From NCBI GenBank assembly GCA_017452665.1, contig JAFTLZ010000143.1, positions 1-46,436 on the forward strand: a stretch of DNA of 46,436 nt. Direction: 5' to 3'. This document shows, in pieces, positions 11,422-15,403 of this stretch. Below the pieces are notes generated by a model. It was not told the DNA's origin, did not search any database, and worked only from the letters and a program-made list of their open reading frames with translations. Both the position numbers and the translations under genes were made by a program. Position 1 is the stretch's first letter, and the number at the start of each line of letters is the position of its first letter. The stretch is from Clostridia bacterium. Its GTDB lineage: Bacteria; Bacillota; Clostridia; Oscillospirales; CAG-272.

Positions 11422-12579
11422 ATGAAAAAAAGAATTTGGAAGCTTTTGTGTTGCTTCCTGCTAATGATTACTGCCGCACAGTCGGGCGCGGTCACAATCA
11501 TGGCGGATACACCTCAAAAGGAGATCGTTTTTGCCATGAGCAATCAAGTCACCGAACCCTTGACGCTTCCCGCAACCTCCACAGCACTTTCGGGGAGCGT
11601 CCTTTCCGACACCGTAGCCACTCTTTCCGCCGATGATCTGCAGGATCTGTATCTGTATCCCGGCGGAATGCCTTTTGGAGTAAAGTTTTATACCGAGGGC
11701 GTCACCGTTGTGGGCGTTTCGGATGTGGAAACCGAAAAAGGAACCGTCAATCCCGCAACCGAGGCCGGACTTCGCACAAAGGACGTGATCCTGAAGGTGG
11801 ACGGCGAGGTCTTATCCGGCGCCTCGGAATTGACCGACCGAATTGAAAACTGCAACGGAAACGCGCTGAACCTGATCTGCCGCCGCGGGAGCAAGACCTT
11901 TGAAACAACGCTGAAGCCGGTCTATTGCAAAGCCGAGGCGCGCTACAAAACCGGAATCTGGGTGCGCGACAGCGGTGCGGGCATCGGAACCGTGACCTTC
12001 ATTCTTCCCGACACGGGCGCCTTTGCCGGCTTGGGGCACGGCATTTGCGATGCGGATACGGGCAGCCTGATCTCTATGAAGCGCGGCAGCGTATCGGACG
12101 TGACCATCTCGGCGGTGGTCAGAGGAGAGTCCGGCAAGCCGGGGGAATTGAAGGGGTATTTCAACGCGGGAAAGGTCGGCGCTCTGCTGGGCAATTCTTC
12201 CTGCGGCGTTTGGGGGATGTTCAGTGAAGTTCCCGATTGTACCGCAGAGCCGCTCCCCGTTGGCTTGAAAGGCGAGCTTGAGGAGGGCGACGCCTATATC
12301 CTCTGCACGCTGGATAACAATAAAACCGAAAAATACGACGTCCGCATCTCCAATATCCATCCCGAAGCCACCGGCTCCAAATGCTTCACGGTTACGGTCA
12401 CCGACCCCGATCTCCTCGCCGTAACGGGCGGAATCGTGCAGGGCATGAGCGGCTCCCCCATCATTCAAAACGGTAAGCTCGTCGGCGCCGTCACGCATGT
12501 GCTCATCAACGATCCCACCACGGGATACGGAATTTTTATCGAAAATATGCTGGTCAATATGCCGCTGATGGCGAGATAA
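11422..12579 (+). CDS. spoIVB: Stage IV sporulation protein B, an S55 signalling serine peptidase.
   Basis: N-terminal hydrophobic anchor, PDZ-like segment (GLRTKDVILKVDGEVL), GLGHGI, and the C-terminal motif [34 protein letters not shown]. Confidence 0.9.
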   Translation: MKKRIWKLLCCFLLMITAAQSGAVTIMADTPQKEIVFAMSNQVTEPLTLPATSTALSGSVLSDTVATLSADDLQDLYLYPGGMPFGVKFYTEGVTVVGVSDVETEKGTVNPATEAGLRTKDVILKVDGEVLSGASELTDRIENCNGNALNLICRRGSKTFETTLKPVYCKAEARYKTGIWVRDSGAGIGTVTFILPDTGAFAGLGHGICDADTGSLISMKRGSVSDVTISAVVRGESGKPGELKGYFNAGKVGALLGNSSCGVWGMFSEVPDCTAEPLPVGLKGELEEGDAYILCTLDNNKTEKYDVRISNIHPEATGSKCFTVTVTDPDLLAVTGGIVQGMSGSPIIQNGKLVGAVTHVLINDPTTGYGIFIENMLVNMPLMAR

Positions 12580-12593
12580 AGAGAAAAAAGTTG

Positions 12594-12644
12594 CTCCTCA
12601 TAAACACACGGCAAGTACGTTTTATGAGGAGTAACTTTCTTTTG
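12594..12644 (+). terminator. Rho-independent-type terminator after the intact spoIVB ORF.
   Basis: Stem CTCCTCATAAA (12594-12604) pairs with TTTATGAGGAG (12621-12631), followed by TAACTTTCTTTT. Confidence 0.6.
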
Positions 12645-12748: not shown

Positions 12749-12779
12749 TTGACTTTACAGTTAACTATAATGTTATAAT
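12749..12779 (+). promoter_or_regulatory. MerR-type promoter with a 19-nt spacer and an internal dyad.
   Basis: TTGACT (12749-12754), 19-nt spacer containing TAcAGTTAACTaTA (12756-12769, core palindrome AGTTAACT), TATAAT (12774-12779). GAAGGAGG RBS precedes ATG 12801. Confidence 0.55.
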
Positions 12780-12800: not shown

Positions 12801-13901
12801 ATGATAAAAATAGGTGATTTGGCAAAGATTTGTAATGTTAGCACGCAGACCTTGCGGTATTATGATGCTGAAGGAGTTCTAAAACCGGATATTACAGATT
12901 CGTCAAGCGGCTACCGATTTTATTCGGTCGATGCGGTAGAAAAGTATAAAAAGATTTTATTTTATAAGAATCTTGGATTCTCTTTGGATGAAATCAAAAA
13001 AATACAGTCCGCGACAACGGAGAAATTGCGAGACATTCTGCAAAATAAAAAGGTAGCTTTATCGAAAGCTATCGAAAGATATAAGGAACAAATCAAAACG
13101 ATTGACGGTCTATGCGAAGAAAGTTCACAAAAACCTTTTTTTGCAGAAATCTTGCTTTTGCCTTTTGAAAACGATCCCAAAGTGATTGGCAAATGGCAGT
13201 TGTGCGGCGAGCTCTTTGACGAAAATGACTTGACATCTTTTGAAGAAGTAAAAAGTGATATTGCTGACAAAGAAATCATATTTATGCCTGGCGGCTCTTT
13301 CGCTTGGAGATACTTTTGGACAAAAGGCACGCTGTATAGAATTTCTCCTAAATATACCTTTGCAATTCCCAATTCTTACAGAACGGTTGAGCAGAATGGA
13401 ATTCGCTATATGATCATTCAATTTATGAGCGATGATTGTATTGACAATGGAGAAGATATGCTAACACTCTTCTATCGACAAATCGACAATGTGGCATATA
13501 CTGAACATCAGATACGTTCCAATATTGATAAAACAGATTTGCCGTTTATTGATGATGAATCGGTTCGTGGCGAATGGACAGTTTATGACTATGTCCCCAC
13601 CGTATCGGATTTTGATCCCGATTCTCATTACAGCAATAAAGAGGATATATATGCTGTAGATATTAAATTCTTATCTCGCGGCATCTGTACAAGAACGATT
13701 CGTACCATGTCGGGAAATGCAACCTATACGCTTCGCTACACAAAAGGCTTTGTTCTCAACGATAAAGAAATGACCGCCGAAGAATATCAGATCAAATCAA
13801 TAAGTGGCAAAGATTATCTTTTGGTACAGCATAAATCCGGAGATTATTTTTACGGTGATTTGACGCCGCATTGGTATGTTTTTGAGAGAAAGGATAATTG
13901 A
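12801..13901 (+). CDS. MerR-family transcriptional regulator with a ~250-aa C-terminal extension of unknown fold.
   Basis: N-terminal HTH IGDLAKICNVSTQTLRYYDAEGVLKP....SGYRFYS, then a coiled-coil linker. The C-terminal part looks like two related halves, each opening with a G.W motif (VIGKWQL, VRGEWTV). Confidence 0.85.
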   Translation: MIKIGDLAKICNVSTQTLRYYDAEGVLKPDITDSSSGYRFYSVDAVEKYKKILFYKNLGFSLDEIKKIQSATTEKLRDILQNKKVALSKAIERYKEQIKTIDGLCEESSQKPFFAEILLLPFENDPKVIGKWQLCGELFDENDLTSFEEVKSDIADKEIIFMPGGSFAWRYFWTKGTLYRISPKYTFAIPNSYRTVEQNGIRYMIIQFMSDDCIDNGEDMLTLFYRQIDNVAYTEHQIRSNIDKTDLPFIDDESVRGEWTVYDYVPTVSDFDPDSHYSNKEDIYAVDIKFLSRGICTRTIRTMSGNATYTLRYTKGFVLNDKEMTAEEYQIKSISGKDYLLVQHKSGDYFYGDLTPHWYVFERKDN

Positions 13902-13902
13902 T

Positions 13903-14505
13903 ATGAAAAAGGAAAATAGAGTAGAGCAATATTTTTATCAAAAGGATTTTTCTATATTAGAAATAATTTTGCTAATTATAGCTATTGTTTCCTTAATTGT
14001 AACGACATTTATTCAAGGCGGAGGACCTATAGGTCTTTCAACTTTATTGGTTTGTGTTTTGGCTTTTTTCATCTGTCGTTCGTTCAAAATTAAAGATAAT
14101 GAAATTGAACAAGCCTTAAAAAAAATAATGCAGGATAATAAAGTTAAGTGTTCTGAAAATGCTATTGAATGTTATGAATTAAAAAACACGGTAATAAAGA
14201 AGAGAAAGGACGGAAAATTCATTTCTCCAAAATATTATATTACCGATATTATATTTTCTTCAGAATATACTCTTTTTAATATTTATATTATTGATTTAAT
14301 TAAGCAATCTGTGGAAATGGTTTCTTATAGTGTAAATATTAATCAAATAATCACTTTAAGAGAGGAAACAATAAAAACCAATGCTGGATTGGCCAAAGTG
14401 TCTTACCTCGAAATCGAGAATGGTTGTGTAATTCCTGTTGTACTGAATGATTATAAGTCCTCTCAATTATTACAAAAAATATGTGACAGACATAAACAAG
14501 AATAA
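13903..14505 (+). CDS. Two-TM membrane protein of unknown function.
   Basis: ATG lies 1 nt after the MerR stop, with AAAGGA 9 nt upstream. TM hairpin FSILEIILLIIAIVSLIVTTFI / LSTLLVCVLAFFICRSF, followed by a ~130-aa soluble domain. Confidence 0.7.
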   Translation: MKKENRVEQYFYQKDFSILEIILLIIAIVSLIVTTFIQGGGPIGLSTLLVCVLAFFICRSFKIKDNEIEQALKKIMQDNKVKCSENAIECYELKNTVIKKRKDGKFISPKYYITDIIFSSEYTLFNIYIIDLIKQSVEMVSYSVNINQIITLREETIKTNAGLAKVSYLEIENGCVIPVVLNDYKSSQLLQKICDRHKQE

Positions 14506-14531
14506 AATACTTATTAAATAGGAGATATTAA

Positions 14532-15104
14532 ATGATTTTACCAAAAGATTTACAAAAATATTGCAGAAATAGAATTTTAAAAAGAGTCATTCCTTGTATA
14601 ATTCTGATTTCCGTGTTTGCAACAATATTGATTTTATGGGGAAACGTTATTTTTAATACGGGTAACAAGGCGTTCCAAACATCCTGTTTTATTGTCGTTA
14701 TGTTAATTCCGTTTGTTATCACGGGAGTTCCTCATAAACTGATTGATTCAACTTATTACGGAACAGTAAAGAAAGTCGATATTGTTACTACAACGGATAA
14801 TGATTCTTCCGTTAAACCTACCCGTGAGCACTTATATTTGAAGAATACCGTTTATTTGAGCATTGAACGACCAGACAGTAAGCTCATATATAAAAAAGCA
14901 TATAGCGGTAAGGTACAGTTGCAACAAAATATTAATACGTATAACGAAGGTGATTTGGTATTTCATCTTTACGGAACGAATACTGTTGTTGTTTTGCCCG
15001 ATTACAATGACAACACTGTTCTTTGTGCTGTTTGCGGTTCTTCCAACAATATTGAGAATGATAAATGCCGTGAGTGTGGTCATTCACTAATAAAGGATAT
15101 CTAA
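14532..15104 (+). CDS. Two-TM membrane protein with a C-terminal zinc ribbon; function unknown.
   Basis: AGGAGA 6 nt upstream of the ATG. TM hairpin VIPCIILISVFATILILWGNVIF / SCFIVVMLIPFVITGV. C-terminal CAVC-x10-CREC. Confidence 0.7.
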   Translation: MILPKDLQKYCRNRILKRVIPCIILISVFATILILWGNVIFNTGNKAFQTSCFIVVMLIPFVITGVPHKLIDSTYYGTVKKVDIVTTTDNDSSVKPTREHLYLKNTVYLSIERPDSKLIYKKAYSGKVQLQQNINTYNEGDLVFHLYGTNTVVVLPDYNDNTVLCAVCGSSNNIENDKCRECGHSLIKDI

Positions 15105-15112
15105 ATTGAATC

Positions 15113-15153
15113 ACCGCCGAGGTCATCCATTTTGAGTGCTCTCGGCGGTTTTT
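15113..15153 (+). terminator. Terminator of the cassette operon.
   Basis: Stem ACCGCCGAG (15113-15121) pairs with CTCGGCGGT (15141-15149), followed by TTTTT. Confidence 0.6.
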
Positions 15154-15203
15154 ATGAATTTTCCGTTAAAATGTGTCGTTCTTTACCCAGCACACTCGTG
15201 TCA

Positions 15204-15319
15204 GGCTCCCCTATCATTCAAAACGGCAAGCTCGTAGGAGCCGTCACCCACGTTTTAATCAACGATCCCACAACGGGCTACGGAATTTTTATGGAAATAT
15301 GCCGCTGATGGCAAGGTGA
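15204..15319 (+). pseudogene. Detached, frame-broken second copy of the last ~40 codons of spoIVB.
   Basis: It encodes [29 protein letters not shown], identical to the intact gene, despite 11 synonymous differences in 87 nt. A 13-nt deletion follows, then a matching ATGCCGCTGATGGC..stop. Confidence 0.85.
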
Positions 15320-15366
15320 CCGAATGCGGAATAGGGAATGCGGAGTGCGGAATTGAATCAGAAAAG

Positions 15367-15403
15367 GCAATATCATTCCATAATGGTTTGATATTGCTTT
15401 TTT
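15367..15403. terminator. Hairpin plus T6 after the spoIVB remnant. Possibly bidirectional with the convergent AraC gene.
   Basis: Stem GCAATATCA (15367-15375) pairs with TGATATTGC (15389-15397), then TTTTTT. An A-rich run lies upstream. Confidence 0.55.

Follow-up and report, generated by a model that had tools for sequence, protein, structure and literature searches.

The window analyzed here, positions 1–46,436 of contig JAFTLZ010000143.1 of a Clostridia bacterium (GenBank assembly GCA_017452665.1), contains at positions 12801–15104 a three-gene module that encodes a MerR-family regulator, termed G1, and two small membrane proteins, termed G2 and G3. All features described below are located on the forward strand. 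According to the open reading frame (ORF) calls, the three ORFs are tightly packed, with a promoter before and a terminator after them. The 366-amino acid (aa) protein G1 (12801–13901) comprises a helix-turn-helix (HTH) and dimerization helix at residues 1–104, followed by a first barrel at residues 118–240 and a second barrel at residues 241–366. G2 (13903–14505; 200 aa) consists of a hydrophobic hairpin and a soluble domain of ~135 aa, and G3 (14532–15104; 190 aa) of two long transmembrane helices, a β-meander, and a C-terminal CxxC-x10-CxxC zinc ribbon. The G1 stop codon is separated by 1 nt from the ATG of G2, and the spacing between G2 and G3 is 26 nt, in agreement with the coordinates and spacing given in an initial annotation of this region. 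Shine-Dalgarno sequences judged to be good are present at the starts of G1, G2, and G3. The intrinsic terminator of the operon (15113–15154) is formed by a 10-bp GC-rich stem followed by UUUUU; its hairpin at 15113–15149 including the U5 tract has a folding energy of −20.8 kcal/mol (z = −3.6), and none of 200 shuffled sequences folded as well. A search of the region for riboswitches or known RNAs found none. Across species, the ratio of nonsynonymous to synonymous substitutions (dN/dS) was 0.06–0.10 for G1, 0.18–0.38 for G2, and 0.13–0.16 for G3. Purifying selection thus acts on all three, and G2 and G3 are real genes.

The upstream regions of G1 were extracted from the genome loci described below for a promoter comparison. 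The promoter that the initial annotation had placed at 12749–12779, here termed P2, proved to be real; its nature as a conserved MerR-type operator-promoter had been overlooked. P2 is composed of the −35 hexamer TTGACT (12749–12754), a 19-bp spacer (12755–12773), and the −10 hexamer TATAAT (12774–12779). A standard promoter scan misses it because only spacers of 16–18 bp are permitted. The arrangement TTGACT-19 bp-TATAAT occurs only at this position in the window, with 0 occurrences expected by chance. The 31-nt site TTGACT-TTACAGTTAACTATAATGT-TATAAT was found with up to six mismatches in 74 loci, including loci whose G1 proteins share only 32–37% identity. This nearly invariant site is present once per genome locus wherever it occurs, and it precedes whichever gene comes first in the operon. 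In the loci L024–L027, L029, L031, and L049, in which G3 or G2 is the first gene, the P2-type site precedes that gene rather than G1.

The P2 spacer contains the operator dyad TTACAGTT|AACTATAA (12755–12770), in consensus form TTACAGTT|AACTRTAA, whose center lies 8–9 bp past the −35 hexamer. The same geometry of dyad and spacer is known from the Tn501 promoter Pmer. The fifth positions of the half-sites, counted from the dyad center, vary symmetrically between loci (C.G, T.A, and G.C), and such mirrored variants fit a symmetric dimeric binder. P2 thus has the over-long spacer (19–20 bp) with dyad that characterizes target promoters of MerR regulators, with binding itself being a prediction from sequence. 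These features show P2 to be a predicted MerR-type operator-promoter under which G2 and G3 would be co-regulated with G1. The conserved operator-promoter is the strongest result of our analysis.

A second promoter-like site, P1 (12706–12734), is located 14 nt upstream of P2. It has the structure TAGACT-17 bp-TATAAT with an extended −10 region (TGATATAAT), and a consensus scan gave 10 of 12 matches plus the TG. In 17 related loci the motif TGnTATAAT is found 12–14 nt upstream of the −35 hexamer of P2, and in two more loci 25 nt upstream. The operon is therefore probably preceded by two promoters in tandem, and of the earlier proposal that the genes lie between one promoter and one terminator, the terminator and P2 held, while the idea of a single promoter did not. 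P1 may supply a basal, G1-repressible expression; transcripts starting there would have to pass the operator.

The N-terminal part of G1 was confirmed as a MerR HTH with coiled coil, as annotated initially. Residues 3–103 matched the MerR HTH plus dimerization helix (PF13411, E = 5e-15). For residues 3–70, the scores of 55.8 bits for PF13411 (cut-off 21.6) and 48.7 bits for PF00376 (cut-off 28.2) identify a MerR-type winged HTH. The dimerization helix matched PF09278 at residues 52–103 with 23.7 bits, slightly below the cut-off of 25.4; for many homologues this match is recorded. The C-terminal ~260 residues consist of two homologous halves, both beginning with LPFxxDxxVxGxW (hhalign probability 96.6%, E = 7e-10), which bears out the two related halves noticed before. 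When the C-terminal 262 residues were used as query, 181 clusters at 90% identity were obtained, nearly all of which represent proteins of ~366 aa with a MerR HTH. An alignment of 18 G1 sequences contained 47 invariant positions.

The AlphaFold model of G1 showed two all-β units and was confident (pLDDT 84, pTM 0.63). In a Foldseek search of the Protein Data Bank (PDB) with this model, the best match was DUF3598 (2o62, E = 1e-3), itself a tandem lipocalin-like protein, followed by the lipocalins Bla g 4, BACOVA_00364, and Can f 1 and by fatty acid-binding proteins (FABPs). For these lipocalin and FABP neighbors the probability was 0.97–1.0 and the TM score 0.4–0.49 per barrel. In the model, G1 shares with lipocalins, FABPs, and DUF3598 the barrel topology and an N-terminal GxW on the first strand, and with 2o62 the tandem arrangement. 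At the sequence level, the barrel domain did not match any Pfam family or PDB chain, including the lipocalin families, and the motifs (V/I)QHKSGDY of G1 and its close relatives and EWKSGDY of the wider family are not known from lipocalins. The modeled barrels thus resemble the lipocalin/calycin superfamily, and membership is putative. An assignment to the GyrI-like domains was not supported, as the Cass2 score was 18.3 bits compared to a cut-off of 27 and the model consists of two barrels. The previous statement that the effector domain is neither GyrI-like nor of the TipAS type is in accord with this tandem lipocalin-like model. When the literature was searched for lipocalin-like domains in MerR regulators, nothing relevant emerged.

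A profile search with the barrel domain against 1.84 billion representative sequences retrieved 1,053 clusters at E ≤ 1e-3, and 719 at E ≤ 1e-10. Of 75 clusters sampled, 28 carried a MerR HTH and 15 a Peptidase_M56 domain of the BlaR1 type; most of the others had no Pfam domain. In the M56 proteins, the region corresponding to residues 136–261 of the C-terminal query is placed after the membrane-protease part, often in several copies. In BlaR1, the position following the membrane-protease part is that of the extracellular sensor domain. Being placed after an M56 protease part in some proteins and fused to a MerR HTH in others, the barrel domain appears to behave as a portable sensor module, one that is not covered by any Pfam model. 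BlaR1/MecR1-type sensors have an entirely different chassis, that of membrane zinc proteases by which a BlaI-type repressor is cleaved; G1, in contrast, is a one-component regulator that binds DNA itself in the cytoplasm. The classical BlaR1 sensor is a penicillin-binding domain and not a barrel of the G1 type. The second G1 barrel, often repeated, was seen in the M56 proteins P0304, P0336, and P0345 and in 12 others. One of the barrel-bearing M56 proteins additionally has an FGE-sulfatase domain and another one a secretin domain.

According to its hydropathy, G2 has an N-terminal two-helix hydrophobic hairpin with a QGGGPIG turn, followed by a β-rich domain of ~135 aa with a predicted terminal helix. 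The GGxPxG turn is invariant in the G2 homologues, and the invariant residues are G39, G40, P42, G44, K102, G104, E154, E155, P178, and C194. The AlphaFold2 model of G3 (pLDDT 86.5, pTM 0.73) showed helices at residues 5–40 and 46–64, a three-stranded meander at residues 75–127, short strands, and the zinc ribbon. The latter is encoded by nt 15024–15077 (C165-A-V-C168-x10-C179-R-E-C182), and its four cysteines are invariant in 32 of 32 homologues, so that the reported C-terminal CAVC-x10-CREC motif was verified. The motifs TGVP, LID, and FHLYG are also invariant in G3. Judged by charge (positive-inside rule, basic N-terminus of G3) and by the zinc ribbon, the soluble domains of both proteins are most probably cytoplasmic. 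The hairpin plus soluble domain layout is thus common to both proteins, as described initially, but no homology between G2 and G3 was detectable (hhalign probability 0.3%), and a common family was rejected.

Neither protein could be assigned to a family. G2 had no match in Pfam, NCBIfam, PADLOC, PHROGs, or a PDB profile search, and for G3 nothing above threshold was found in these searches or in Foldseek searches against the PDB and BFVD. The homologues of G2 (81 clusters) and G3 (98 clusters) are all unannotated and all originate from Clostridia metagenome assemblies. The best weak structural matches of G3 in the PDB and BFVD were COMM domains, OB-fold/DUF35 proteins, and DUF3592 (E ≥ 3.5e-3, TM ~0.25); these weak likenesses were not taken as membership in any of these groups. 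A paper on bacterial COMMD-like proteins contains none of the words zinc, MerR, and operon, and "transmembrane" appears in it only in connection with eukaryotic cargo. The suggestion that the proteins resemble bacterial PH-domain (bPH) proteins of the YdbS/YdbT type failed for G3, as none of the 32 homologues matched a bPH family and no PH-like protein was among the 50 best PDB matches listed. For G2, none of 34 homologues matched the families bPH_1 to bPH_6 and the PDB profile search was empty; the β-rich domain ending in a predicted helix is compatible with a PH-like fold. The 32 G3 homologues did not match the NfeD family PF01957 either, and the window contains no SPFH gene. In contig L073, which stems from the same species and another sample, a CGA-to-TGA exchange at window position 14868 truncates G3 at R113 (R113*). 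It is one of only four differences between L073 and contig L074 over the ~3-kb island, and L074 matches the window.

A scan of one genome per species identified 72 loci, of which 64 G1-anchored loci remained after ORF calling and clustering. All 72 come from the guts of humans, ruminants, and other hosts and belong to uncultured members of the Clostridia, Oscillospiraceae, or Eubacteriales. The operon contained a G3-type gene in 28 of the 64 loci, a G2-type gene in 16, and both in 12. The gene order G1-G2-G3 was found in six loci (L004, L005, L007, L008, L009, and L012) and the order G3-G2-G1 in three (L024, L029, and L031). The trio therefore co-occurs outside this genome, in at least nine other species, and all three of its families are unannotated. 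About six alternative sets of cargo occur with this regulator, and the trio represents one of them, a point that the initial annotation had missed. In 11 loci G1 is accompanied by F2 and F5, two lipoproteins of which F5 has an HExxH motif, in five loci by F2 and F20, in five further loci by F12, F13, and G3, and in nine loci by combinations of F4, F8, F22, and F36. In all recurrent families of the 64 loci, the genes co-directional with G1 encode predicted membrane proteins or lipoproteins. The cargo families F2, F4, F5, F8, F12, F13, F20, F22, F36, and F89 had no match in Pfam or NCBIfam. Homology between cargo families was rejected, the sole related pair being F12 and F89 (84%). Among the lipoprotein cargo (L003, L054, L053, and others), F2 gave a weak α/β-hydrolase signal and F20 a weak peptidase C25 signal. 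As the cargo varies while regulator and operator stay constant, the trio is real and recurrent but not an obligate unit; the constant part is the regulator with its operator, and G3 is the most frequent partner.

A metagenome scan anchored on G3 revealed relatives with 43–48% identity and a retained zinc ribbon that have neither G1 nor the operator nearby (L084–L092, for example L090, 5821–7567). In two related human-gut lineages, these G1-less relatives are located directly downstream of a Band_7/SPFH gene.

The composition of the module differs from that of its surroundings. The GC content drops from ~0.50 to 0.30–0.36 over the module, and the GC content at third codon positions (GC3) is 0.36 for G1, 0.21 for G2, and 0.31 for G3 compared to 0.55–0.70 for the surrounding genes. 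Of 60 loci compared, 41 have flanks whose GC content exceeds that of the module by more than 5 points. The insertion site is the 3′ end of spoIVB (peptidase S55; 11422–12579; PF05580, E = 1.4e-78; GC3 0.68), a gene outside the module. The intact spoIVB is followed by a terminator hairpin (12579–12643; −28.8 kcal/mol, z = −6.8), just past which the low-GC island begins. On the other side, the module is flanked at 15198–15315 by another copy of the spoIVB 3′ end (~125 nt), which was detected as the direct repeats D1 and D7. This duplicate has 87% identity to 12451–12544 and is decayed, as a 13-nt deletion breaks the frame; tblastn gave 94% identity over 33 aa, and a called 58-aa ORF matched PF05580. 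Together with the GC3 contrast, the duplicate supports the proposal that a self-contained cassette of regulator and membrane proteins is carried on foreign DNA.

The locus L001 has a corresponding organization, in which spoIVB and the regulator are followed by a duplicate of the spoIVB end (118 nt, 90% identity). Sequence shared with the window starts at about 12650, and according to alignments the right end of the island (15152–15196, ...GTTAAAATGTGTCGTTCTTTACCCAGCACACT) is likewise common to L001 despite a different cargo there. Since L001 resembles the window also upstream of spoIVB, these two loci may go back to one ancestral insertion with a later exchange of the cargo. In L014, the 3′ end of another neighboring gene is duplicated over 214 nt. 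Flanking repeats were found in the window, L001, L014, and weakly in L002; they are absent in L076 and most other loci, and in another species the module follows tig-clpP-clpX without repeats. The island does not contain a recombinase. These observations suggest a recurrent insertion mode in which a cassette without recombinase would duplicate the 3′ end of a neighboring gene. Within the same genome pair (window versus L004, L007, or L012), the synonymous divergence dS differed two- to fivefold between G1 and G2/G3; for L004 it was 1.1 for G1 against 0.31 and 0.59 for G2/G3. Regulator and cargo therefore have different, mosaic histories. Horizontal movement of the module is well supported by these sequence comparisons.

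Our favored reading, which we consider to have an even chance of being correct, is that the module is a ligand-activated, self-regulated MerR cassette for an envelope response, with a hydrophobic compound as the probable signal. We base it on the MerR logic, the calycin-like sensor and its reuse in BlaR1-type proteins, and a cargo located exclusively in the envelope. A G1 dimer would be bound to the dyad TTACAGTT|AACTATAA inside the over-long 19-bp spacer of P2, a placement derived from the conserved architecture. Unliganded G1 would hold P2 closed, as MerR, BmrR, and TipA do at their promoters. By analogy to the MerR-family mechanism, binding of the signal to the tandem barrel would untwist the spacer, allowing RNA polymerase to fire, and G1, G2, and G3 would be transcribed as one unit. 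The signal would most likely be a small, membrane-permeant molecule of hydrophobic or amphipathic character, for example a lipid, a bile acid, a fatty acid, an ionophore, or another antimicrobial; this guess is motivated by the lipocalin/FABP barrel shape and the outward-facing use of the domain in BlaR1-type proteases. G2 and G3 would insert into the membrane by their helical hairpins with the soluble domains inside the cell, and as the output they would probably modify or protect the cell envelope. The cargo is interchangeable, and in other species the same regulator and promoter precede other uncharacterized membrane proteins or lipoproteins.

This scheme has counterparts in the BmrR/Mta/TipAL-type activators of Gram-positive bacteria, which like G1 consist of an N-terminal winged HTH, an antiparallel coiled coil, and a large C-terminal domain; this domain binds drugs or antibiotics in the activators and is a putative ligand-binding domain in G1. 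Their target promoters, like P2, combine good −35 and −10 hexamers with a 19-bp spacer in which the operator dyad is centered. For tipA and bmr-bmrR, the regulator is co-transcribed with its targets, as would be the case for G1 with G2 and G3. In contrast to BmrR and TipAL, the effector domain of G1 is a duplicated lipocalin-like barrel in the model and not a GyrI-like (SHS2) or TipAS domain, and unlike in the BmrR type its predicted targets are small uncharacterized membrane proteins instead of an efflux pump, with the cargo being swapped between species.

Several points weigh against an envelope response to a hydrophobic ligand. The Foldseek E values for G1 lie between 1e-3 and 5e-2, and the likeness to lipocalins exists at the level of the fold only. 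The hydrophobic ligand is putative, and barrels of lipocalin shape can also bind things other than lipids. Going by their sequences, G2 and G3 have no assignable biochemical activity and match no known family. The natural nonsense variant in L073 means that G3 is dispensable at least sometimes, and the G1-less relatives mean that G3 is not strictly tied to the G1 regulator. As the cargo sets are mutually unrelated, "envelope protection" is their common denominator and not a demonstrated activity. Finally, all carriers are uncultured, and the switching of P2 is a prediction.

In a variant reading, G2 and G3 would be co-sensors that relay the membrane status to the G1 barrel in a kind of partner switch, and the real regulon would lie elsewhere. 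The most probably cytoplasmic location of their soluble domains, on the same side of the membrane as G1, would allow such contacts, for which the long exposed β-meander in the G3 model appears suited; the best weak matches of G3 are interlocking COMM domains. Membrane anchors encoded together with an SPFH protein are known to recruit stress proteins in B. subtilis, where YdjG and YdjH anchor the SPFH protein and PspA (PMC8581546). The pspA-ydjGHI operon resembles the cassette in that a stress-controlled operon encodes small integral membrane proteins, one of which has a CxxC motif, and the G1-less G3 relatives downstream of Band_7/SPFH genes recall the SPFH-NfeD and ydjGHI pairings. Unlike YdjG, YdjH, and NfeD, with which it has no sequence similarity or confident structural similarity, G3 is encoded in a cassette under the control of a MerR protein and not of sigma-W as in the SPFH/PspA operons, and neither the window nor any G1 locus contains an SPFH or PspA gene. 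We therefore regard pspA-ydjGHI as a functional analogy only. A regulon elsewhere is at odds with the finding of at most one operator per genome locus and of exactly one in the 46-kb window, with no other target. Furthermore, many G1 operons encode only extracytoplasmic lipoproteins (F2 plus F5 or F2 plus F20) or otherwise lack G2 and G3, so that binding of G2 or G3 cannot be the general signal, and in BlaR1-type proteins the same barrel works outside the cell. A role of G2 and G3 as co-sensors is thus unlikely.

The initial annotation had related the module to phage defense or abortive infection. G1 would then sense an infection cue, and G2 and G3 would disrupt the membrane in the manner of holins, killing or arresting the cell. 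The small size, AT richness, and horizontal mobility of the module, its two small two-helix membrane proteins, and the absence of an enzyme that could be named agree with this idea, and the tight off-state of MerR activators would suit toxic effectors. The database searches spoke against it. In PADLOC-DB 2.0 only the HTH of G1 had a match (mad1) and G2 and G3 had none, PHROGs was empty for G2 and G3, IMG/VR contigs contained neither relatives of the G1 barrel or of G3 nor the operator, G3 was unmatched in phage records, and the barrel domain was unmatched in plasmid records. The neighboring genes are of the housekeeping type, here spoIVB, ABC transporters, and an AraC gene and elsewhere tig-clpP-clpX, the one neighborhood that was annotated in detail with Pfam. 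The alternative cargo includes secreted lipoproteins with hydrolase-like motifs, which is unlike a suicide effector, and positive autoregulation at the transcriptional level is slow for abortive infection. We regard a function in defense as improbable.

Inert hitch-hiking cargo, meaning a decaying remnant of a larger mobile element with no current role in the host, would be even harder to accept. It would explain an island without recombinase, the decayed duplicate of the spoIVB end, and the truncated G3 in the same species. It is contradicted by dN/dS values of 0.06–0.38 for all three genes across species, by an operator-promoter that is nearly invariant over about 70 loci, and by the reading frames, ribosome-binding sites, and terminator, all of which are intact in the window copy. 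Least credible of all is a metal- or redox-responsive MerR system with the zinc-ribbon protein G3 handling the metal, for which the invariant four-cysteine site of G3 and the top NCBIfam hits of the first 100 residues of G1 (ZntR, CueR, and CadR) could be cited. These hits reach only 48–63 bits compared to cut-offs of 143–168 and cover HTH and helix only, and the cysteine at the end of the dimerization helix (residue 105) is not conserved across the G1 family. Furthermore, the place taken by a short loop in metal sensors is occupied in G1 by the 260-aa barrel domain, and the G3 site is a standard structural zinc ribbon.

Extending the envelope-response reading, we tentatively put forward a broader and rather doubtful proposal. 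The barrel might represent a large unrecognized sensor class (~1,000 clusters at 50% identity, (V/I)QHKSGDY or EWKSGDY motif) that is plugged into MerR switches and BlaR1-type proteases. The MerR version, equipped with the invariant operator, might in Clostridia of gut and rumen form a portable promoter-plus-sensor head behind which interchangeable uncharacterized envelope proteins are shuffled, constituting a new modular envelope-response system for a hydrophobic compound derived from host, diet, or drugs. The one-component switch logic of MerR is known, and new are the widespread sensor domain, the conserved operator, and the cargo from unannotated families. We saw no sign of a new gene-control mechanism or a new defense principle; the regulatory logic is textbook MerR. 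About a dozen unannotated families, G2 and G3 along with the ten cargo families listed above, are tied to one operator and regulator, and the inducer of one reporter would therefore provide a first functional handle on all of them together. The reuse of the sensor domain in BlaR1-type sensors makes it relevant to antibiotic-response signaling. The carriers are abundant uncultured Clostridia of gut and rumen, habitats in which the community is shaped by responses to bile acids, fatty acids, plant compounds, and feed ionophores.

Regarding the surroundings of the module, a link to sporulation via spoIVB was rejected, as the adjacency is due to the insertion and the other loci, except for the syntenic L001, lack spoIVB. 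An empty insertion site was not found in the same species, where both contigs that have the neighboring AraC gene and reach the site carry the island. Behind the spoIVB remnant, a hairpin at 15362–15402 resembles an original spoIVB terminator, and the intact spoIVB copy has a different one (12579–12643). Similar hairpins (AAAGGCAATATCA...TGATATTGCCTTTT) were observed near cassette boundaries in the window (15362–15402), in L001 (12876–12920 and 14322–14365), and at both flanks of the L014 module; a search of Rfam gave a sub-threshold match only. The boundary hairpin probably served the interrupted locus as its native bidirectional terminator, or it is possibly a repeated element.

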